In this document: positions 7,580 to 47,142 of the stretch, piece after piece
Position numbering within the stretch: position 1 is the first letter of the stretch
Layout: every line of letters begins with the position of its first letter
IMG/VR virus record: IMGVR_UViG_3300021492_000027
Length of the DNA: 64,000 nt
Direction: 5' to 3' (one strand)
DNA from: a virus
Program-made: the position numbers and the translations under genes
Notes under the pieces: generated by a model
The model's input: the letters and a program-made list of their open reading frames with translations, nothing else
What the model was told of the DNA's origin: nothing
Database searches by the model: none

Positions 7580-8594
7580 CAAAAGAAAGCTGATTCTTCT
7601 CATAGCAGTGATAGCTACACTATCGCTATTTGCGGTAAGTGCATTAGCGAGCAATGCGGATATTGTATCAGTAGGGTTTACACTTGTCAAAAGTGCAAGT
7701 TCTGCTGTTAGTGATAGCGTATCAATAGGTTTTAGTTTGGTCAAAAGCGCTTTAAGTTCAGTATCGAGTACTTTGTCGGTAGGCTTTACGCTTGTTAAAA
7801 GCATAGTGTCATCGGCAACAAGCATTATATCGGTAGGATTTACGCTTATCAAACAAGCAATAAGCATAGTATTTGCAACAATAAATACAACCTTTCATTT
7901 AAGTCCAGCGCCAACACCGACGCCAACGCCACCACCATCGAAATTCTATGTGCAAATCACATCGAATAATTGTCCGGTATATATCAATCAGACAGCGTAT
8001 TTCAGTGCAACAGCAGGTGGTTCAGACCTTGTCTATCCACTAACTTTCTATTGGGACTTTGGTGACGGCACAACAGAAGTATATCCAATGCCTATTTTTG
8101 TGAATACTTCCAATGTCACACATGTATTTCCGTCGTATTGGCGTTCATGGGATGTAAAGGTGACAGTATTAGACCAAGTTTTTCATGAAGCGGAAGCTAC
8201 TGTTACATGTTGTGTAGTACGGACAAAAACAGACGAGCATGTTGATACAATAGACGATTCAGCCTATTATGCTTTATTGAATGCGCTTGTGGGTCAGACC
8301 TTTGAGGGACCGATAAACGAAAGCGCCGAACCCAACTTCATCGAATTTGGTAAAAGCGTTACAATCCCATATACAAATATTCTTGGTAGCTTATTCTTTG
8401 TTATCTTCTTTGGTGCGTTCTTCATAATGATGTGGCTACGGCAGGGCAATATCGCTATCCCGTCAACGATAGGAATAATAGTAGGTGGTGTTTTATTGAA
8501 GTACGCACCTGCGGAGTTCAGATTACCCGCGATACTGTTCATTTCATTCAATATATTTGGCATAATCTATACGCTACTCAAAGAGCGCAGTTAA
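7569..8594 (+). CDS. Membrane-anchored PKD-domain protein with four 18-aa N-terminal repeats
   Basis: Signal peptide, 4x S(V/I)GF(T/S)L(V/I)K repeats, PT linker, PKD motif YWDFGDG, three C-terminal TMs. Confidence 0.7.
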   Translation: MSNSKRKLILLIAVIATLSLFAVSALASNADIVSVGFTLVKSASSAVSDSVSIGFSLVKSALSSVSSTLSVGFTLVKSIVSSATSIISVGFTLIKQAISIVFATINTTFHLSPAPTPTPTPPPSKFYVQITSNNCPVYINQTAYFSATAGGSDLVYPLTFYWDFGDGTTEVYPMPIFVNTSNVTHVFPSYWRSWDVKVTVLDQVFHEAEATVTCCVVRTKTDEHVDTIDDSAYYALLNALVGQTFEGPINESAEPNFIEFGKSVTIPYTNILGSLFFVIFFGAFFIMMWLRQGNIAIPSTIGIIVGGVLLKYAPAEFRLPAILFISFNIFGIIYTLLKERS

Positions 8595-8643
8595 AAAATT
8601 TAAATATTCAGCGATTATATTTTTATATAGGTGATGATAAGAG

Positions 8644-9012
8644 ATGGTAAAAATATCAGAAGACTCAATAAACATAGTAGAGAAGTCGGAACGCATCAAG
8701 CATGACATTGAAGACTGCTATCGTGCAGCGATAAAGTTTCTTGAGCTCTATACTAACAGTTCGTTGCGCCGTGCAGGCAATCAGAAGCTATTTTATATAG
8801 GTTTTGTTTCAAAGTTCCAGTCTTTGTATTATTTCACACGTGTGGATAGCAACATGAAGCACGAGAAGACAGAAGATGGCAAGTTCCTATTAAAAGAAGT
8901 AGATGAGTGGCTAAACAACGGTGTAACAAAAGACCCTAAAAAAGGCATCAAGTTATTTACAGAGTATTCACAAGCGTTATTCGATAAAGGCATATTGAGT
9001 TTCAAAAGGTAG
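8644..9012 (+). CDS. Hypothetical protein
   Basis: 122-aa ORF with GGTGAT RBS. Confidence 0.65.
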   Translation: MVKISEDSINIVEKSERIKHDIEDCYRAAIKFLELYTNSSLRRAGNQKLFYIGFVSKFQSLYYFTRVDSNMKHEKTEDGKFLLKEVDEWLNNGVTKDPKKGIKLFTEYSQALFDKGILSFKR

Positions 9013-9025
9013 GTGATAGAAAAAA

Positions 9026-9622
9026 ATGGTAGCATCAACATCACCAGCGGCATCGTCAATACCCACAAAATTTGATATAGCGCGGTTACGTAAATACGAA
9101 CTGAACTTACAGGAACGGATTGATACAGGCTTAGTTCCTTCGTTCTATTCTTTCATGAACATTTACGCGTCAGCAATAGAAGACCTCAGAGGCGATACTG
9201 ACCTCCGTCCAGAGCTATTGACACTTTTAGCGATGGGCTATGTGAGACACAAAAGAGACAAGCTCATGAACGAGTTAGAACAGAAGATACGCGATCGCAT
9301 AAAAGAAGTTAAAAAAATGAATGATGGTTCGATATCAAATTCAGAGATAGGACGGATAAGGATAGAAGAGTCAGTAAAGATGATGGCGAGTATAATTGCA
9401 CATTTTGAAGAAAAATACGAACGCCGCCAGACAATAGGATTATTAATCTCACCAAAAGACATGGAGGAGCTCGATGCGCCTCCTATCGTGTTAGATTTGA
9501 ATTCATGCGAGGACAAGCTACGAGAGATGGGTGTGGTGATAGAGAATGCAAAAGGCGTAATAGAAGAGAGTAGTGATTATGAAGAGAGCGAAGAATACAG
9601 CGAAGAGGATGAGGAAGAATGA
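9026..9622 (+). CDS. Hypothetical protein, acidic C-terminus
   Basis: 198-aa ORF overlapping the ATPase start. Confidence 0.65.
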   Translation: MVASTSPAASSIPTKFDIARLRKYELNLQERIDTGLVPSFYSFMNIYASAIEDLRGDTDLRPELLTLLAMGYVRHKRDKLMNELEQKIRDRIKEVKKMNDGSISNSEIGRIRIEESVKMMASIIAHFEEKYERRQTIGLLISPKDMEELDAPPIVLDLNSCEDKLREMGVVIENAKGVIEESSDYEESEEYSEEDEEE

Positions 9623-27564: not shown

Positions 27565-27622
27565 ACTCCCTCAAAACTTCTTTTTTATTTTTTAAATTTT
27601 TAAAAATAAAACGGAGAGATAA

Positions 27623-29231: not shown

Positions 29232-29524
29232 GTTTCAATTATGAACGTTTAATGTTTTTAACAAAATATGTGCCACACGGACTAATGGCTTCTAACAAAA
29301 AGAAAGAAGAAGTTAATAACGAGACACGAGTGCAAATACTGAAAAAATGGGATTATAGATGTTATCTATGTAATCGTGAGAAGCATTGCATAATTCATCA
29401 TCGTATACCTAACGGTGATGCAAGCGATGAGAACCTCTATCCTTTATGTGAGCAGTGTCATAAGCTCGTGCATACAATTTTATGGTTGGATGGTAAATGG
29501 ATGTTTCAAGGTTATAGGAGATGA
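29228..29524 (+). CDS. HNH endonuclease
   Basis: CYLC...HHRIP...NLYPLCEQCHKLVH. Confidence 0.85.
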   Translation: MSFNYERLMFLTKYVPHGLMASNKKKEEVNNETRVQILKKWDYRCYLCNREKHCIIHHRIPNGDASDENLYPLCEQCHKLVHTILWLDGKWMFQGYRR

Positions 29525-30144
29525 CAAAAATGGAAGTTGAGATAAAAGAATTTATTAAACATCACTACAAAAAATTACAATTTGGAAATGAACAGATAGA
29601 TTATATAGAAGAAGAGCATGATTTTAAAAATAACAACAAACATAGAGGAGCAACTATTGATTTTTTATGTAGAACTACCAATGAAAAATATATATTAATT
29701 GAGTGCAAAGGCGAAGTTGATGAAAAAAGTATTGGTCAGTTACTTAAATATAGAGTGTATGCTAAGAACGAATTAAAAGTAAAAGATAATGACATACTAC
29801 TGATACTATTAGGTTATAGCTTCCATAGTGATTTCTTTACTGCATATTCGTTAATAGAAAATTTGAATTTATTTAAGCCCTTTCAGTATATCTGTTATTG
29901 GTCATTTAGAGGAGATAAAAAGTTTTATCATGTTTTTTCTCTTCCTGATAAGAGAGAATATCAAATAATAACAGAAGTTGTAAAATCTCATCAACAAGTC
30001 AAGCGAGAATTAATTGAAGCAATTATGAGGAAGAGATGGGAACTAATAACATCAGGTGATTTGTTTATAACTCCAACAAAAGACGAAATTCAAAGACTTA
30101 TGGATATGACATTTAGTAATACAAAGAATGTCTACTATAAGTGA
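29521..30144 (+). CDS. PD-(D/E)xK nuclease (NucS/Mrr-like)
   Basis: IDFL...LIECK...SIGQLLKY. Confidence 0.7.
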   Translation: MTKMEVEIKEFIKHHYKKLQFGNEQIDYIEEEHDFKNNNKHRGATIDFLCRTTNEKYILIECKGEVDEKSIGQLLKYRVYAKNELKVKDNDILLILLGYSFHSDFFTAYSLIENLNLFKPFQYICYWSFRGDKKFYHVFSLPDKREYQIITEVVKSHQQVKRELIEAIMRKRWELITSGDLFITPTKDEIQRLMDMTFSNTKNVYYK

Positions 30145-30197
30145 ACTAAGGATATACTAATCTTTTTAGCTCATTATTATAAGAGCAAAAATGAAAA

Positions 30198-31106
30198 ATG
30201 AAACAAAAAGCGAGGCGACATAGTAGAGCATTTTTTGAGAAGTTAGTGCGTAACGAGTTGCACGATCTACCGGAATCGGTACAGCAAGAGACAATAGACA
30301 AACTCGTGCAGTACGATTGTCCTGTACTAACCGCACAAAAAACCCGGGATGTGCTCAATAAGATAAAATCACAATTCAATGAAGCGAATATCACCCCAAG
30401 CGAAAGCATCGGTATCGTAGCAGCGCAATCACTTGGCGAGAGCAGTACCCAGCTCGTTTTGAGAACATTCCATTACGCGGGTGTGGCATCTGAGTATATG
30501 CGTGGCGGGCTCGCGCGTGTGCAGGAGATAATAAACGCAGTAAGGCATATCAAAAACCCGTCAATGCGTATAGTGATAAAACATAAGCGTGCAGAAAAAA
30601 GAATAATCGAGCAAATAAAGAGTTTGAGGGGTGTTTCGTCACTAACAATAACACAAGAAGATGGTAAGACTGTCATATACACACGCGGTAGTAATTTGAG
30701 AGATGCGATGGAGATAGAAGGTATAAGTGTAATAACAAACAACATAAGAGAAATAGAGGATGTGTTGGGTATAGAGGCGGCACGTGCGGCGATAATAAAC
30801 GAGCTCTATGGCGTTTATAACTCATCAGGGTTGGATGTTGATATTAGGCATATTATCTTGATAGCGGATATGATGACCGTGAACGGCTATGTGGAGCCTC
30901 TGAATCGTGTGGGTGCGATGCGTCATAAGAAGTCAATCATAGCGAAGATGGCGTTTGAAGCGCCCATATCTAATCTATATACTGCGGCGGCGACTGGTGC
31001 TATTGACAGTTTGGAAGGCATAACCGAAAATATCATTGTCGGTAAACCCATTAATCGCGGTACTGGCAGTTCCTTGATAGTTTTAGAGTACAAAGACAAT
31101 AAATAA
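30198..31106 (+). CDS. rpo1C: Archaeal RNA polymerase subunit Rpo1C (A''), jaw-deleted
   Basis: GIVAAQSLGE..TQL.LRTFHYAGV (trigger loop), TNNIREIEDVLGIEAAR, DIRHI.LIAD.MT, AFE, GITENIIVGKPI..GTG. Confidence 0.92.
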   Translation: MKQKARRHSRAFFEKLVRNELHDLPESVQQETIDKLVQYDCPVLTAQKTRDVLNKIKSQFNEANITPSESIGIVAAQSLGESSTQLVLRTFHYAGVASEYMRGGLARVQEIINAVRHIKNPSMRIVIKHKRAEKRIIEQIKSLRGVSSLTITQEDGKTVIYTRGSNLRDAMEIEGISVITNNIREIEDVLGIEAARAAIINELYGVYNSSGLDVDIRHIILIADMMTVNGYVEPLNRVGAMRHKKSIIAKMAFEAPISNLYTAAATGAIDSLEGITENIIVGKPINRGTGSSLIVLEYKDNK

Positions 31107-31145
31107 TGTTTTTATATATGCGTTCTAAATATTAATAGAAGAGAA

Positions 31146-31430
31146 ATGATAGAAAAGATATTTGGCACAAAGACACATATTAAGGTTGTTTTATTTCTAC
31201 ATAAGATTTCAGCAACGCGTAACCGCACAACAATAAAGGAGCTACATGAGCGGTTGCATATCTCCCGTCCTTCAATAATAAAGGTGATTAATGATTTGAA
31301 GCGTGCGCATATAGTTGTTGTGATGGGCACGACGAAGGCGCGCTATATCTTGATAGCGAACACGCCACAGCGCAGGGCGTTATGGCGTTTCATTAACGAT
31401 TTTGAGAAAAGTTTTTATCAATTACGGTAA
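31146..31430 (+). CDS. Winged-HTH regulator
   Basis: TIKELHERLHISRPSIIKVINDLKRAHIV. Confidence 0.7.
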   Translation: MIEKIFGTKTHIKVVLFLHKISATRNRTTIKELHERLHISRPSIIKVINDLKRAHIVVVMGTTKARYILIANTPQRRALWRFINDFEKSFYQLR

Positions 31431-31779
31431 TTATGTGTTTTGTTTTGTGTTTTAAAGTATTTTTAAGTTAGTTTTATCATCATTCATAAACTTTTCTTTA
31501 CGAATCATGGGGTTTTAAATAGCGACTTTTGCAATGTAGGTTTGGTGAGGGCAGATGGGGTAAACATCTGCCTGACCGCGCATAAGCGCGGGGCATGTTT
31601 ATGCTTATGGTTTTAGGGGAGAGGCTTCCTGCGCCCCTGCTCGAACCCGGAGCGAAAAATAAAGGAGGGAGACAGAGTTGCGAATGAGAGTAGTGTTCGG
31701 TGTATATTGTGGGAAATAAAAAAACAAAAACAGGATAGTGATCCCCATTTAGGGTGAAGTCCTATTTTCTTAATTTTTT

Positions 31780-31935
31780 GGAGGAGCTGGTGGCGGGCAC
31801 CCCTGAACCCGGACTGGGGCGCAAGTCCGGGGTTTGTAGGCTTATCTGGTGTGTTGCGCCAGCACACCAGAGGCTGAAAGGTAGGGGCTGGCTACCCCTG
31901 CTGAGGGTGCAAGGGTTCGACTCCCTTCTCCTTCG
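31780..31935 (+). ncRNA. tRNA-like RNA 1 with a three-hairpin insert
   Basis: 7-bp acceptor GGAGGAG/CTCCTTC, T-arm AAGGG-TTCGACT-CCCTT, 64% GC by hand count, three internal hairpins. Confidence 0.7.
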
Positions 31936-31974
31936 TGCTTTTGTGTGGAAGCACAAGAGCGAGGAGGTATAAAA

Positions 31975-32124
31975 ATGGAAGAAAGCAAAGAAGTGGCGGA
32001 AGTCACAAATTTAAGAAGAGTCTTGGAATATATCCAAGAACGCGAGGGGAGTGCGGTTATGAAGACAGAGATTATAACATTGTTCAAAGACATGCGGAGG
32101 CTGAGCATGGGAAAGGCAGTGTAA
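31975..32124 (+). CDS. Small hypothetical protein (49 aa, not in ORF track)
   Basis: GAGGAGGT RBS immediately downstream of tRNA-like RNA 1. Confidence 0.5.
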   Translation: MEESKEVAEVTNLRRVLEYIQEREGSAVMKTEIITLFKDMRRLSMGKAV

Positions 32125-32182
32125 TAGAGAAGGTTGTGGGAAATTGGAGTTATCCATACACTGTGTAGGAGTGAGGAAGGAA

Positions 32183-33025
32183 ATGGAAGTAACCAATATA
32201 GAAGACCTTTACAGTACGGTACGACCTCCGACTGAGTACGAAAAGGGATATATCGCCGGTAGGCATTACGAGAAAGTTCAAGGAAATTTTGTCGATGCTG
32301 AGCCGCTGCTTGGCGAGCTGCGAGGGAGAGTGCGATTCTCTCTTGAGGAGGAAGTGGCAGATATGGTGACGCCAACGAAGATAAAGATCGGGTTCAGAGG
32401 AGCATACCGAAATGCACAGAGGATACTCGCATCCACAGTGCTTGAAGCAAAGCTCAGAAATGAGTTTGAAAGCATAAAGGGGAGTAAGATATCAAAGGTG
32501 AATCTTATTGGAGATCAGCTAATTGCAGATTTTACGGTTGAATTTAAGCGGAGAACAATCATTCCATTCTTTCCACGAGCACAAGAGCAAGCAGACATTG
32601 CTTATCAACGCACTGATAAACTGTCATACGAAGAAGCGGTTTTCTACCTTCTCACTGTAGACAGTCACCTTATAGGGCATCAAGCGAATGGATATTTCGG
32701 GCGATTTCATGAATTTTTCTTTAAATTCCTTGAGTATAAACAAGTAGAGATATTTGAGCGGCCCCAGATAGTCGTGGAATTCATTAACGACGAAAGGATC
32801 GAAGATATAACGATAATTAGGAAAGTTGGAAAAGGACAGTTCAGAGAAGTGCGGCATCATTATGAGCGTGTCGATCCTGCAGTTCGGAAAAGAATTTACG
32901 ACGAGGAAGTTGACGAGGTGCAAGACAAGTTGTACTATCTCACACACGTAAAGGATCACATATATCGGCTAACGAGCATGGGAAGTTTTAATTCTCTGCT
33001 CGTTTGGGTGACTGATGGAGATTAG
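32183..33025 (+). CDS. Hypothetical protein
   Basis: Start moved to ATG 32183 behind GAGGAAGG. Confidence 0.7.
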   Translation: MEVTNIEDLYSTVRPPTEYEKGYIAGRHYEKVQGNFVDAEPLLGELRGRVRFSLEEEVADMVTPTKIKIGFRGAYRNAQRILASTVLEAKLRNEFESIKGSKISKVNLIGDQLIADFTVEFKRRTIIPFFPRAQEQADIAYQRTDKLSYEEAVFYLLTVDSHLIGHQANGYFGRFHEFFFKFLEYKQVEIFERPQIVVEFINDERIEDITIIRKVGKGQFREVRHHYERVDPAVRKRIYDEEVDEVQDKLYYLTHVKDHIYRLTSMGSFNSLLVWVTDGD

Positions 33026-33104
33026 AAGAATCGAAGGTTGAGAAGAAAAATGAAAGGAAAATAGTGCCTAAGCGTCTCATTTTATGAGACTCTTCTTTAT
33101 TTTT

Positions 33105-33213
33105 GAAGGAGCTGTGGTCAGGCACATCTCCATGTATCCCATGGCTTTCTTTCCTCCCCTTAGATTTTTATGCTATATGGAGATGTGCAAGGGTTCGACT
33201 CCCTTCTCCTTCA
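33105..33213 (+). ncRNA. tRNA-like RNA 2 with a pyrimidine-rich insert
   Basis: Acceptor GAAGGAG/CTCCTTC, T-arm identical to RNA 1, 12-bp helix GCACATCTCCAT/ATGGAGATGTGC. Confidence 0.7.
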
Positions 33214-33233
33214 TCCTCTTAGGAGGGATAGAA

Positions 33234-33680
33234 ATGGTGGACATGAGTCGTGTATTTGAACAGGCTTGGGCGGAAGAGCCTGAGCCTGTGTGTCGTGTCG
33301 TAAGCGAAGAACTGCGAGAGCAAGAAGAGAAGCGTGAGAAGAAGCTTCTCTTCTTAGGGAAGAAAGAGGTTGTTTCGAATCGTAGTGTAGTGTATCGTAA
33401 TGGAGAGTTTTTTATAGAGGCTAATGGGTCTTCGTTTGTGATAAGACCCAGATGGGAAAAGGAATATCTAAGAATCAGGGGAAAGAGAAATAAGAAATAT
33501 ACGAAGTTTACGAGAGCACCATGCTCGATAGTGATACCAATGCCAGTTGTAAGAGAAAATCCGATGCTATGGTTTGAGCAGAATTACTTAAGTAATGTAA
33601 AGAGAAATCAGCAAGGGGCTTTCATAAAGAAAATCTGGGAGCATAGGTATGAATTCATGCCTGTAATGATGATGGGGTGA
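33234..33680 (+). CDS. Hypothetical protein
   Basis: Start moved to ATG 33234 behind the AGGAGG RBS; the longer predicted start runs through the ncRNA. Confidence 0.65.
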   Translation: MVDMSRVFEQAWAEEPEPVCRVVSEELREQEEKREKKLLFLGKKEVVSNRSVVYRNGEFFIEANGSSFVIRPRWEKEYLRIRGKRNKKYTKFTRAPCSIVIPMPVVRENPMLWFEQNYLSNVKRNQQGAFIKKIWEHRYEFMPVMMMG

Positions 33681-33967
33681 TAAAAATGAACAAGAGAAAG
33701 GAGCTTCGGGTTTTTGTTAACTCTGAACAAGTCAGCCGCTGGATTTTTTTAGAGCGGCTGGGACTTTGTTTCAGAATCACACCAAACAATGGTGGCTGGC
33801 AAAATGTAGAGTATAGCAGAGCCCTTGAAATATGTAAGCGTATAGTCTCAAGGGCTGATGGTGAAAAGGTTAGAGTAAGCGGTTCAATTGTTGATGAATT
33901 ACAGCGAGAAGAAATGGTTAGTAAATTGTTCAGTGAAGGAAAGCTTGTTTTGGGAGGTGTTCAGTAA
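33677..33967 (+). CDS. Hypothetical protein
   Basis: Coupled ORF in the early operon. Confidence 0.55.
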   Translation: MIKMNKRKELRVFVNSEQVSRWIFLERLGLCFRITPNNGGWQNVEYSRALEICKRIVSRADGEKVRVSGSIVDELQREEMVSKLFSEGKLVLGGVQ

Positions 33968-34201
33968 ATGAATATAGAAAAAGTAATAGAAGCAATAAAA
34001 GAGTATATTCTTGCAGAGCCAAAGTACAATAATATCGAGCTACAGACAAAGATATTACAACAGAAAGGATACAAAGGAGTTTCGTATGTTACTAAGGCAA
34101 ACAAGATAGTATCAGTTCTTGAAGATGGAACGGTAAAAGTTTTTAGTCCGCAGGGTCAGCTAATGGAAAATTATCCGCAGTTGTTGGGTGAAGGGCAATG
34201 A
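33968..34201 (+). CDS. Hypothetical protein
   Basis: GGAGGTG RBS. Confidence 0.6.
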   Translation: MNIEKVIEAIKEYILAEPKYNNIELQTKILQQKGYKGVSYVTKANKIVSVLEDGTVKVFSPQGQLMENYPQLLGEGQ

Positions 34202-34518
34202 ACGCAGGAACAGCAGAAATCCTCGTAAAGTGCGATTTTAATGGTGAAAAAGTGATAGAGAATCTCCGTAGGGAATGTAAGAGAGTGCTAAGATTTTTAG
34301 AAGATGAAAAGGCTTATCAGAATATTAGGAGTGGGTGGTTTGGCGCTTATGGTGCAGCGTCCCTTCATGATTTGAGATATGCAATTGAAGCAGTAATTGC
34401 CGTTCACACAAAAGATAGAAAAGACTTGGATGAAGCGTGCAAAGCAATAGAATTCAAAGAAAATGCAATGGCTTTATATACAGCTATTAAAGCAGCGTCA
34501 TTAGTTGAGGAGCAGTAA
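34198..34518 (+). CDS. Hypothetical protein
   Basis: ATGA overlap with the previous gene. Confidence 0.6.
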   Translation: MNAGTAEILVKCDFNGEKVIENLRRECKRVLRFLEDEKAYQNIRSGWFGAYGAASLHDLRYAIEAVIAVHTKDRKDLDEACKAIEFKENAMALYTAIKAASLVEEQ

Positions 34519-36087: not shown

Positions 36088-36277
36088 AAATTCATTTTTT
36101 ATTTTTTAGCAAAATTAGGAGGAAAAACGAAATGAATGAAAAAGAGCAAAAAGAGTGGTTAGCAAAAATTTTATGTATCGTAGAGGAACTAAAAACTATA
36201 GTAGTAAGGGCGCAGGAAGATGCTCTTGATGAGCTTAATGAAATAGAAGAGGAATGCAACAAGCTACTTAAAAGATT

Positions 36278-42474: not shown

Positions 42475-42506
42475 GCATCAATTTTTTATTTTTTTATTTT
42501 TTGTAT

Positions 42507-42580
42507 GGGCTCATAGCTCAGCAAGGTAGAGCGGCGGGCTTTTAACACGTTGGTCATGGGTTCAAATCTCGTCGAGCCCA
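42507..42580 (+). tRNA. trnK: tRNA-Lys (UUU)
   Basis: Cloverleaf GGGCTCA-TA-GCTC/GAGC-G-GCGGG-CT-TTT-AA-CACGT-TGGTC-ATGGG-TTCAAAT-CTCGT-CGAGCCC-A; mismatches at A7-C66 and G30-A40. Confidence 0.85.
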
Positions 42581-42597
42581 TAAAAAAGGAGGTAAAA

Positions 42598-46937: not shown

Positions 46938-47142
46938 ATTGTGCAAAGCATTATGACTTTGATTTTTATTTTTTATATATTTTTTAGATATTTGTTCAGC
47001 AAGATAACAATTATATGAAGAAAAATAATTTAAAAGCAATAAATTACGAATTACAGTTTATATTACCAGTAGCAATAAACGACAAGTTGCTTTATGTTTA
47101 TATATTTTTAGAAAATAATCCCTCAAAAAGGAGTAAATAAAC

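Follow-up and report, generated by a model that had tools for sequence, protein, structure and literature searches.

The DNA analysed here, a 64,000-nt virus stretch (IMGVR_UViG_3300021492_000027, hereafter the window), comes from an archaeal-type virus of hydrothermal-vent sediment and carries two non-coding elements, at 31780-31935 and 33105-33213, built on one minimised tRNA frame in which unrelated inserts replace the anticodon arm. About 45 copies of such elements make up the family. They may well act as t-element-like signals to RNase P and tRNase Z, and are also predicted to release scaffolded small RNAs.

Structure of the Two Elements

A preliminary description of this DNA proposed that the two elements share an identical 28-nt 3' end, consisting of a canonical T arm and a 7-nt acceptor strand, and that each supplies its own complementary 5' strand. 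Both proposals were borne out. The window contains just two exact copies of the 28-nt sequence, at 31907-31934 and 33185-33212, and none of 100 shuffles contained a match with three or fewer mismatches (chance expectation 0). The acceptor 5' strands at 31780-31786 and 33105-33111 each pair with the common 3' strand at 7 of 7 positions, including one G-U pair in element 1. The 5' strand is purine-rich and resembles a Shine-Dalgarno (SD) sequence, the 3' strand is pyrimidine-rich and resembles an anti-SD, and a real SD follows shortly downstream. Directly upstream of element 1 lie a non-coding RNA, conserved and about 350 nt long, and a U-run. The features are as follows.

31774-31779, + strand: T-run abutting the 5' end of element 1, in contact with its first G
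31780-31786, + strand: element 1, acceptor stem 5' strand (7 of 7 pairs with 31928-31934)
31787-31796, + strand: element 1, D-like hairpin of 3 bp with a 4-nt loop containing GG (RNAalifold and pair counts)
31797-31802, + strand: element 1, closing helix 5' strand at the anticodon-stem position, paired with 31905-31910
31803-31904, + strand: insert A, an internal four-way junction (covarying hairpins and loop-loop helix)
31905-31910, + strand: element 1, closing helix 3' strand, paired with 31797-31802
31911-31927, + strand: element 1, T arm with a 5-bp stem, invariant in the family, and a canonical 7-nt T-loop
31928-31935, + strand: element 1, acceptor 3' strand and discriminator G; CCA is not encoded
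31936-31977, + strand: short leader with a hairpin and an SD, then the ATG (31975) of a 49-aa ORF
33100-33104, + strand: T-run abutting element 2
33105-33121, + strand: element 2, acceptor 5' strand (33105-33111) and D-like hairpin (33112-33121)
33122-33188, + strand: element 2, 15-bp closing helix (33122-33136/33174-33188) around insert B (33137-33173)
33189-33213, + strand: element 2, T arm (33189-33205), acceptor 3' strand (33206-33212) and discriminator A
33214-33236, + strand: leader with an SD, then the ATG (33234) of a conserved 148-aa gene, c0
42506-42581, + strand: true tRNA-Lys(UUU), with a T-rich tract before it and an SD about 8 nt after it

The tRNA-like fold of element 2 has an energy of -43.7 kcal/mol (z -5.6) and accounts for 47% of the ensemble. 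The inserts of the two elements are not related to each other, as had been noted, and neither ARAGORN nor Rfam finds an anticodon arm with a 7-nt loop in them. The sole tRNA that default ARAGORN and Rfam at gathering score report in the window is the tRNA-Lys at 42506-42581. The search named beforehand as decisive, for an Rfam match to an ordinary or intron-containing tRNA, returned none at the elements, and neither did default ARAGORN.

A Family with a Common Frame

The copies come from 25 metagenome contigs and 7 contigs fetched via a neighbouring gene, and the elements are present two to three times per genome. Every copy has an acceptor stem of 7 bp, a D-like hairpin of 3 bp capped by a 4-nt loop, and a canonical T arm; together with the fourth arm, these meet in a four-way junction free of linker bases. 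The frame is devoid of positions 8-9 and 26 and of the variable loop, and its D hairpin is very small. For this predicted junction, a plausible arrangement would be an L-shape with a D/T elbow. The fourth arm holds at least five unrelated inserts, namely A, B and three further types (C, D and E) found in relatives, and related viruses carry different inserts in one genomic slot. The earlier suggestion of a tRNA frame serving as a modular chassis with varying cargo is therefore strongly supported by sequence comparison, and is extended by the roughly 45 copies and their inserts.

The frame is maintained by base pairing. Of the cells given by 21 frame pairs in 26 distinct copies, 99.6% are paired, and 6 pairs have compensatory change; the covariation score was reached by no shuffle, and slid controls were only 47-58% paired. 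The covarying helix described as closing the insert is present in both window elements, is 99.4% paired in 26 family members and shows compensatory change at 4 of 6 pairs. The D hairpin, formed by element positions 8-10 with 15-17, is about 97-98.7% paired, with compensatory change at 2 of 3 pairs. The preliminary description had noted a different, competing D arm. Its pairings are real in the two window copies, yet family-wide pairing reaches only 54-64%, and three registers fail. With the competing arm, the proposed bistable fold also loses its support, and the non-competing hairpin is retained in its place.

The acceptor and T stems (7 + 5 bp) are 100% paired in the 26 copies. Variation in the T-loop is confined to positions 57 (G/A) and 59 (C/U), both of which vary in tRNAs generally, and the discriminator is A or G. 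In the standard frame, neither of these stems has compensatory changes, even though Rpo1C and wHTH share just 49-55% identity between viruses. This invariance of sequence despite protein divergence is not explained by enzymes that read structure alone. The covariance model scores 99 bits on the + strand vs. 32 bits on the - strand and, together with the G-U pairs, this asymmetry points to an RNA from the + strand.

Relatives also carry a 48-nt mini element without insert or fourth arm (for example L007:5103-5150, which is intergenic). It occupies the same slot, with a T-run on its 5' side and a ribosome-binding site and c0 after it. It has the stacked acceptor and T stems, the T-loop and the discriminator of the standard frame, but its stem sequences are wholly unlike those of that frame. 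Since slot and fold are kept and sequence is not, the top half of the tRNA is the conserved part.

The Inserts

Insert A contains three hairpins (31808-31814/31825-31831, 31839-31853/31863-31875 and 31880-31887/31895-31902) and a 6-bp loop-loop helix between 31818-31823 and 31855-31860. Among six distinct copies, compensatory changes occur in all three hairpins and in the loop-loop helix. This conservation of structure suggests that the released RNA is probably functional itself. The two kissing hairpins are separated by a UGUAG linker, a layout like that of the SRP Alu fold, in which two hairpins are joined by a UGUNR turn and by loop-loop base pairs (PMC8185352). Rfam lists no SRP family for insert A at E up to 10, even when the insert is searched alone.

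Insert B exposes an anti-SD-like pyrimidine tract. Element 2 lies partly within an ORF (33084-33680), but the copies of insert B differ by 1-nt indels, which rules out a coding reading. An antisense search with the five inserts, in the window and at 25 loci, returned matches at chance level only.

Genomic Setting

At every copy, a T-rich tract abuts the first G with 0-nt spacing, in at least 11 distinct upstream contexts, and an SD follows 8-40 nt downstream; for the two window elements the distance is 8-30 nt. The order of T-tract, tRNA and SD is shared by the true tRNA-Lys, so that the layout originally noted for the two elements and the tRNA gene at 42506-42581 holds for all three. The elements thereby head protein-coding cassettes, each copy standing between a T-tract and the SD of the next gene. 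Among the contigs fetched through homologues of c0 (61-78% protein identity), 7 of 7 have the standard frame upstream of c0. Pfam, PHROGs and the Atlas gave no match for c0, c2 or the cassette proteins.

The window and two relatives whose Rpo1C is 96-97% identical (L004 and L011) differ by whole cassettes that have frames as their borders. Joints in the DNA runs lie beside or inside the frames (31760 to 31911, 31934 to 33258, 31936 to 33100, and 31760 to 33093), and there is independent reassortment among D-hairpin alleles, inserts and 3' flanks. A boundary of the integron attC or att-site type was considered and rejected. The scanned ORFs of the window include no integrase, and none lies beside the elements; moreover, the whole frame is duplicated, with both its 5' and 3' halves, not the 3' end alone, present at every copy.

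A metatranscriptome contig from a relative, with 25 mismatched letters and 15 gaps in about 490 nt, spans 31556-32050, although the library may contain DNA. It runs from the upstream non-coding region through the T-run and element 1 into the next ORF, as a precursor transcript would. RNA run X24 consists of assembled contigs, three of which fall on this stretch, all from a relative, so that transcript ends, strand and level cannot be read from them; the run leaves 32057-33100 uncovered. An RNA contig end at 33108 is no evidence of a transcript start because DNA contigs also break at 33100.

Proposed Function and Alternatives

In the proposed mechanism, the elements would be transcribed from the + strand as part of early transcripts, each standing at the front of a gene cassette. 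Host RNase P would cut at the first G, unless transcription itself starts there, and host tRNase Z would cut after the discriminator. The downstream mRNA would thus be freed with a short SD leader and the upstream RNA would gain a U-rich 3' end. The third product would be a compact, tRNA-shaped small RNA, probably CCA-tailed, on which the insert is displayed. A 12-bp stack of acceptor and T stems is the feature recognised by RNase P, tRNase Z and the CCA-adding enzyme. A role in processing or transcript punctuation would fit this stack, the T-loop, the layout shared with tRNA-Lys and the presence of an insert-less form in the same slot. A terminator function of the T-run is conceivable and would speak against co-transcription with the upstream RNA.

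An alternative is that transcription starts at the first G and that the element stays on the mRNA as an uncleaved 5' leader, guarding against 5'-3' decay or helping to recruit the translation machinery. The T-tract at 0 nt in so many contexts resembles an AT-rich, initially melted region followed by a T/G start site. The SD always lies within 40 nt, and the RNA-library contigs continue from the elements into the downstream ORFs. However, a protective hairpin needs neither a canonical T-loop nor a discriminator, one of those contigs crosses the T-run upstream of element 1, and the tRNA-Lys, which must be excised to function, has the identical layout. Such a leader is therefore considered unlikely.

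It is also improbable that the near-identical frames act mainly as homology or recombinase sites for the exchange of cassettes between co-infecting viruses, with a fold that is secondary or ancestral. The frame-bounded cassette differences, the position of the joints and the reassortment of alleles, inserts and flanks are all consistent with such anchors, and homogenisation would account for an invariant frame at about 50% protein divergence. On the other hand, the D hairpin, the closing helix and insert A have all undergone compensatory change, which shows selection on a folded single strand; the G-U pairs and the strand asymmetry suggest that this strand is RNA. In addition, the mini element resembles the standard frame in fold while differing in sequence, and no integrase was found beside the window elements. 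Recombination at the frames is likely a true side effect and not their primary function.

A more ambitious version of the scaffold idea holds that an invariant chassis mounts SRP-Alu-like, anti-SD-like and other modules, that host tRNA enzymes mature and stabilise the products, that these act in trans on host translation or defence, and that modules and cassettes are exchanged by recombination at the chassis. Taken as a whole, this is a doubtful proposition.

Two further readings concern the ribosome. The SD-like and anti-SD-like acceptor strands could pair alternatively with the real SD just downstream and so gate translation of the next gene in cis. Such a switch could account for the conservation of these strands at the level of sequence, and the SD of the c0 leader is able to pair locally, as read from the sequence. 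Against this, the mini element in front of c0 has an acceptor stem unlike an SD, tRNA-Lys stands in an equivalent layout, the tRNA-like fold is stable, as the energy of element 2 illustrates, and the T-loop is left unexplained. The switch has little probability.

A slightly poorer candidate still is a tRNA mimic that is CCA-added, aminoacylated or bound by EF1A, and enters ribosomes like the tRNA-like domain of tmRNA, with inserts that act on translation. Recognition by aaRS or EF1A would impose sequence-specific conservation on the acceptor and T stems, and both the Alu-like arrangement of insert A and the anti-SD-like tract of insert B could be fitted to it. No Rfam model other than tmRNA (RF00023) aligns end to end; it does so through its tRNA-like domain, but scores 18.6 bits vs. 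a gathering score of 47. Identity with tmRNA was rejected on this score, for want of a tag reading frame and pseudoknots, and because the window copies have A3-U70 instead of G3-U70. Moreover, the discriminator switches between A and G, insert A matches no SRP family, and plant mitochondrial t-elements, which define mRNA ends, are CCA-tailed yet not aminoacylated (PMC1920247; 10.1101/2024.09.09.612099).

Finally, it is scarcely credible that the elements are true tRNA genes split by large non-canonical introns: ARAGORN, with introns of up to 3000 nt permitted, imposes a tRNA-Phe(GAA) with a 67-nt intron on element 1 and an 80% score threshold gives a poor tRNA-Ser(GCU) on element 2, but these forced models have a wrong acceptor or mismatched stems, the would-be U33 is C in the copy from L011, the elements match no tRNA model (RF00005) and have no 5-bp/7-nt anticodon arm, a conserved anticodon-type loop is absent from all inserts (C, D and E included), the mini form likewise offers no anticodon loop, the frame is without several tRNA positions, and BHB-like motifs, already discounted in the preliminary description, occur near the shuffle rate (5 vs. 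3.5 and 2 vs. 0.5 by chance), are not conserved and conflict with the covarying helices.

Comparison with Known Systems

The family was not recovered from reference collections. In IMG/VR, exact and degenerate scans with the standard 3' frame and the mini element gave 0 matches, protein-anchored searches with the 280-aa gene and Rpo1C found no relatives, and the Rpo1C alignment retrieved giant-virus RNA polymerases only. Among genome contigs, the exact 22-nt 3' frame had 0 matches and the Rpo1C alignment yielded no confirmed relative; positions 29500-34500 had no match in the 'phages' collection. Rfam searches at E up to 10 with the elements, insert A and the upstream non-coding region gave only sub-threshold noise besides the tRNA-like parts of tmRNA and mascRNA. 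For archaeal viruses, the literature search found no account either of this family or of any natural scaffold that bears its insert in an arm. The original assertion that no such RNA class had been described is too strong as to kind, t-elements being known. A conserved viral chassis whose fourth arm is swapped among structured modules is absent from Rfam and was not found in the searchable literature.

Haloarchaea, organelles and mammalian nuclei are all known to have tRNA-like processing signals. The viral elements resemble t-elements in their 12-bp acceptor/T stack, tRNA-consensus T-loop and unpaired discriminator, and in their placement at the boundary of another transcript unit. In Haloferax volcanii, 5S rRNA is preceded by a tRNA-like structure at which RNase P and tRNase Z cleave, generating the ends of the neighbouring RNA (Hölzle et al., 2008, 2012, cited in PMC4326828). 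Like the viral elements, it is archaeal, non-decoding, tRNA-like and adjacent to another RNA; the Haloferax t-elements are, however, cellular and single-purpose, with no conserved scaffold for swappable inserts. The viral elements, whose cleavage is predicted, occur two to three times per genome and head protein-coding cassettes. The plant mitochondrial t-elements are likewise tRNA-like structures at the 5' or 3' ends of mRNAs, serve as RNase P and RNase Z signals and do not encode CCA (Forner et al., 2007, PMC1920247). In contrast to the linker-less four-way junction of the viral frame, with its fourth arm replaced, they derive from recognisable tRNA genes and keep the anticodon arm.

The mascRNA/MALAT1 and MEN-beta modules (RF01684) have a reduced D arm and lie directly 3' of a long structured non-coding RNA, much as element 1 follows its conserved non-coding RNA and U-run. 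In those systems, RNase P cleavage forms the 3' end of the upstream RNA. They are eukaryotic, however, keep an anticodon-like arm and bear no insert; membership in this family was rejected because the matches, at 17.2 and 13.4 bits, fall far under the gathering score of 42.5. The tRNA-like domain of tmRNA has the acceptor stem, an analogue of the GG D-loop, a long helix replacing the anticodon arm and the T arm. tmRNA and SmpB form a bacterial system, and the features that set the viral elements apart from it are given above.

If the elements are cut as predicted, large archaeal viruses would punctuate their early transcripts via host tRNA enzymes and would encode a set of small RNAs, one of them a covarying kissing-loop junction. 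Because the frames border a fast-changing cassette region, they may also serve as landmarks for accessory, possibly anti-defence, genes in uncultured viruses. The nearest parallel in design is the engineered tRNA scaffold of Ponchon and Dardel (2007), in which an insert placed in the anticodon stem is reportedly processed and stabilised by cellular tRNA enzymes. That scaffold is made in the laboratory, whereas the viral frame, once cut as proposed, would be its natural counterpart, equal in design and minimised in its frame.

Structure and distribution of the tRNA-like frame

The two elements under study share a tRNA-like frame, consisting of an acceptor stem, a D-like hairpin, a closing helix in the position of the anticodon stem and a T arm, and each carries its own insert as the content of the fourth arm.

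Features of the window
30198-31106, Rpo1C (Rpb1 domain 5) fragment, a virus-encoded RNA polymerase part
31431-31779, conserved and structured non-coding region between the winged-helix gene and element 1
31780-31935 (+), element 1, with insert A
33105-33213 (+), element 2, with insert B
42506-42581, true tRNA-Lys(UUU)

The preliminary description claimed a shared 28-nt 3' end and a separate complementary 5' strand for each element, and both claims hold. The 3' end occurs exactly twice in the window (31907-31934 and 33185-33212), with no matches at up to three mismatches in 100 shuffles, and the 7-nt 5' strand of each copy pairs with the common 3' strand. The MFE folds of element 1 (-78.4 kcal/mol, z -2.5) and element 2 (-43.7 kcal/mol, z -5.6, 47% of the ensemble) have one architecture in common. 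The strands of the 12-bp acceptor/T stack (31780-31786 plus 31911-31915 versus 31923-31934) are all purine and all pyrimidine. When 26 sequences were aligned, the frame formed a four-way junction whose helices meet directly, with no linker bases between them.

Helices of the frame in the 26-sequence alignment
Acceptor stem: 7 bp, 100% paired, variation by G-U only
D-like hairpin: 3 bp with a 4-nt loop, GG always present, 98.7% paired
Closing helix: 99.4% paired, compensatory change in 4 of 6 pairs
T arm: stem invariant

Base pairs of the D-like hairpin are exchanged in several lineages (U-A to C-G, G-C to A-U). The covariation score of the frame was reached by no shuffle, and only 47-58% of cells pair in a control with partners slid by 1-3 columns. 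The bistable fold proposed earlier is not supported, since the competing D arm is paired in only 54-64% of cells, whatever the register. Within the T-loop, change is confined to positions 57 (G/A) and 59 (C/U), both of them variable in real tRNAs as well. R1, a covariance model of the frame, scores ~99 bits on the plus strand versus ~32 bits on the minus strand, and G-U pairs are frequent; these properties favour an RNA made in the gene direction.

Insert A is a four-way junction in itself. Its three hairpins keep their pairing through compensatory changes, as does a 6-bp loop-loop (kissing) helix between the first two (31818-31823 with 31855-31860), in which one A-U pair has become G-C in the lineage of the related contig L007. 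These first two hairpins, joined by a UGUAG-containing linker (31832-31838), are reminiscent of the SRP Alu fold; SRP models gave no match to insert A. Insert B is non-coding because its copies vary by 1-nt indels. These indels also mark a 198-aa ORF (33084-33680), which reads through element 2 into the conserved 148-aa gene c0, as an artefact, and the strong Shine-Dalgarno in front of the c0 start at 33234 likewise argues against it.

No relatives came from IMG/VR or from the genome and phage collections, and the exact 22-nt 3' end is present in 25 contigs of the metagenome collection. With R1 and a looser structural scan, the window and these contigs yielded 31 complete copies plus 3 truncated ones; T-loop variants occur in some. 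A further 10 copies in 7 contigs were reached via c0 homologues. In sequences extracted from the metagenome contigs, the same frame encloses at least five unrelated inserts, bearing out the idea of a modular frame with differing cargo.

Insert types
Type A: three hairpins, ~155 nt, element 1
Type B: pyrimidine tract, element 2
Types C, D and E: in relatives

All sample labels for the stretch are hydrothermal-vent, sediment or marine metagenomes. Based on gene content, the archaeal-type replisome (PolB, RFC, primase, XPF, helicase) and the Rpo1C-like fragment indicate that the window is an archaeal-type virus. The Rpo1C fragment is kept in all related contigs (51-97% identity), always two genes upstream of the first element. 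ANME-1, the host implied by the preliminary description, is a candidate only; the published account of ANME-1 viruses mentions neither tRNAs nor non-coding RNAs. In the relatives L097 and L098, a T4 Rnl1-type RNA ligase adjoins a true tRNA-Lys(CUU) (7887-8930 and 9118-9190); no such ligase was found among the scanned window ORFs.

Genomic context and expression

The gene order is conserved: the Rpo1C-like gene and the winged-helix gene come first, followed by a ~350-nt structured non-coding region and an element (type A, C, D or E). Between none and four variable genes come next, in most cases with a type B element after them, and finally c0 and c2. The preliminary description placed both elements of the window between a T-run and a ribosome-binding site. 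A T-run touches the 5' end of every element, and a Shine-Dalgarno lies within ~8-30 nt past the discriminator. The true tRNA-Lys has the same layout. For region 31431-31779, an alignment of 10 diverged viruses predicts 47 pairs, with compensatory change in 12, and shows several invariant blocks and no conserved ORF; the region has no Rfam match. A stretch inside it that looks like a ribosome-binding site pairs with a pyrimidine block lying upstream. The succession of this region, a U-run and a tRNA-like element recalls MALAT1-mascRNA. A T6-A-T6-type tract recurs intergenically (27581-27593, 36095-36107, 42482-42502 and 46969-46985), directly ahead of leaders and ribosome-binding sites, also where there is no tRNA-like element, and could be a promoter-proximal or terminator signal of the virus.

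Rpo1C is 96-97% identical among the window, L004 and L011; comparison of 31780-33213 with L004:9459-9833 and L011:5354-7967 revealed that whole cassettes between frames differ in number and kind. DNA runs contain joints that adjoin or lie within frames, and inserts, 3' flanks and D-hairpin alleles have been shuffled independently of one another. These patterns indicate that the frames are recombination points in a fast-changing accessory cassette region. That anchoring recombination would be their main role is unlikely.

Part of the stretch is represented in one metatranscriptome run by assembled contigs of a relative, which show no ends or strand. One RNA-library contig spans 31556-32050 (25 differing letters and 15 gaps over ~490 nt), taking in element 1 and the ORF that follows it, together with the T-run and the non-coding region before it, and a second contains element 2 and c0. 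At most, this is compatible with a precursor spanning the T-run, in a library that may contain DNA. An uncleaved leader with a protective or recruiting function is just as unlikely as the anchoring role.

Constancy of the acceptor and T stems

Between the window and most other viruses, identity is only 49-55% for Rpo1C and the winged-helix protein; for c0 it is 60-96%. In the standard frame the D hairpin and closing helix covary, and the acceptor and T stems are unchanged across viruses. Because they are unchanged despite this protein divergence, readers of structure alone do not explain their constancy. Possible causes are a sequence-specific partner, a second role of the SD-like/anti-SD-like strands, or recombination that homogenises the frames.

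In the L007/L013/L021 and L022 viruses, a mini element fills the slot just before c0.

Mini elements
L007:5103-5150, 48 nt
L013:5805-5852, 48 nt
L021:10236-10283 (-), 48 nt
L022:1232-1279 (-), 48 nt

The mini element is built from an acceptor stem of 7 bp, a D-like hairpin of 4 bp and a T arm, lacks a fourth arm and insert, and stands directly after a T-run and ahead of a ribosome-binding site, as other elements do. Its acceptor and T-stem sequences are wholly unlike those of the standard frame. Because an element of different sequence occupies the same slot, it is the best evidence that the selected feature is the tRNA top half and that the insert is optional for the requirement of the slot. 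Both the mini element and the tRNA-Lys layout weaken the proposal of an SD/anti-SD switch, which is left with a small probability.

Relation to tRNAs and known tRNA-like elements

An ordinary tRNA, named beforehand as the refuting identity, was found in neither element; the sole match in the window by ARAGORN and by Rfam at gathering thresholds was the true tRNA-Lys. At permissive Rfam thresholds, element 2 aligned end to end to tmRNA only, via the tRNA-like domain (18.6 bits versus a gathering score of 47), and the 3' parts of the elements showed a weak likeness to mascRNA. A ribosome-directed mimic is slightly less probable even than the switch. The ARAGORN intron option forces element 1 into a tRNA-Phe whose intron is 67 nt and whose variable arm is long, and at the 80% threshold element 2 is read as a tRNA-Ser with a wrong acceptor stem; both models fail on relatives, and the would-be U33 is C in L011. 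The claimed absence of a BHB intron is likewise sustained, as bulge-helix-bulge motifs occur at about the shuffle rate and at positions that clash with supported helices. Intron-bearing tRNAs are very unlikely.

In anatomy the elements meet the recognition requirements of RNase P, tRNase Z and the CCA-adding enzyme. Because they fit these tRNA enzymes and known tRNA-like processing signals, the likeliest function, at roughly even chances, is punctuation of the transcript in the manner of t-elements, which would also set free a scaffolded small RNA. Haloferax t-elements are described as cleaved by RNase P and tRNase Z (PMC4326828), and plant mitochondrial t-elements set mRNA ends and are CCA-tailed and uncharged (PMC1920247; 10.1101/2024.09.09.612099). 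The elements resemble both in anatomy. The earlier claim of an undescribed archaeal-virus RNA class stands only in part. As a kind, tRNA-like processing elements are already known; a viral chassis that is conserved, has swappable structured arms and recurs at the heads of cassettes in archaeal viruses is absent from Rfam 15 and was not found by literature searches.
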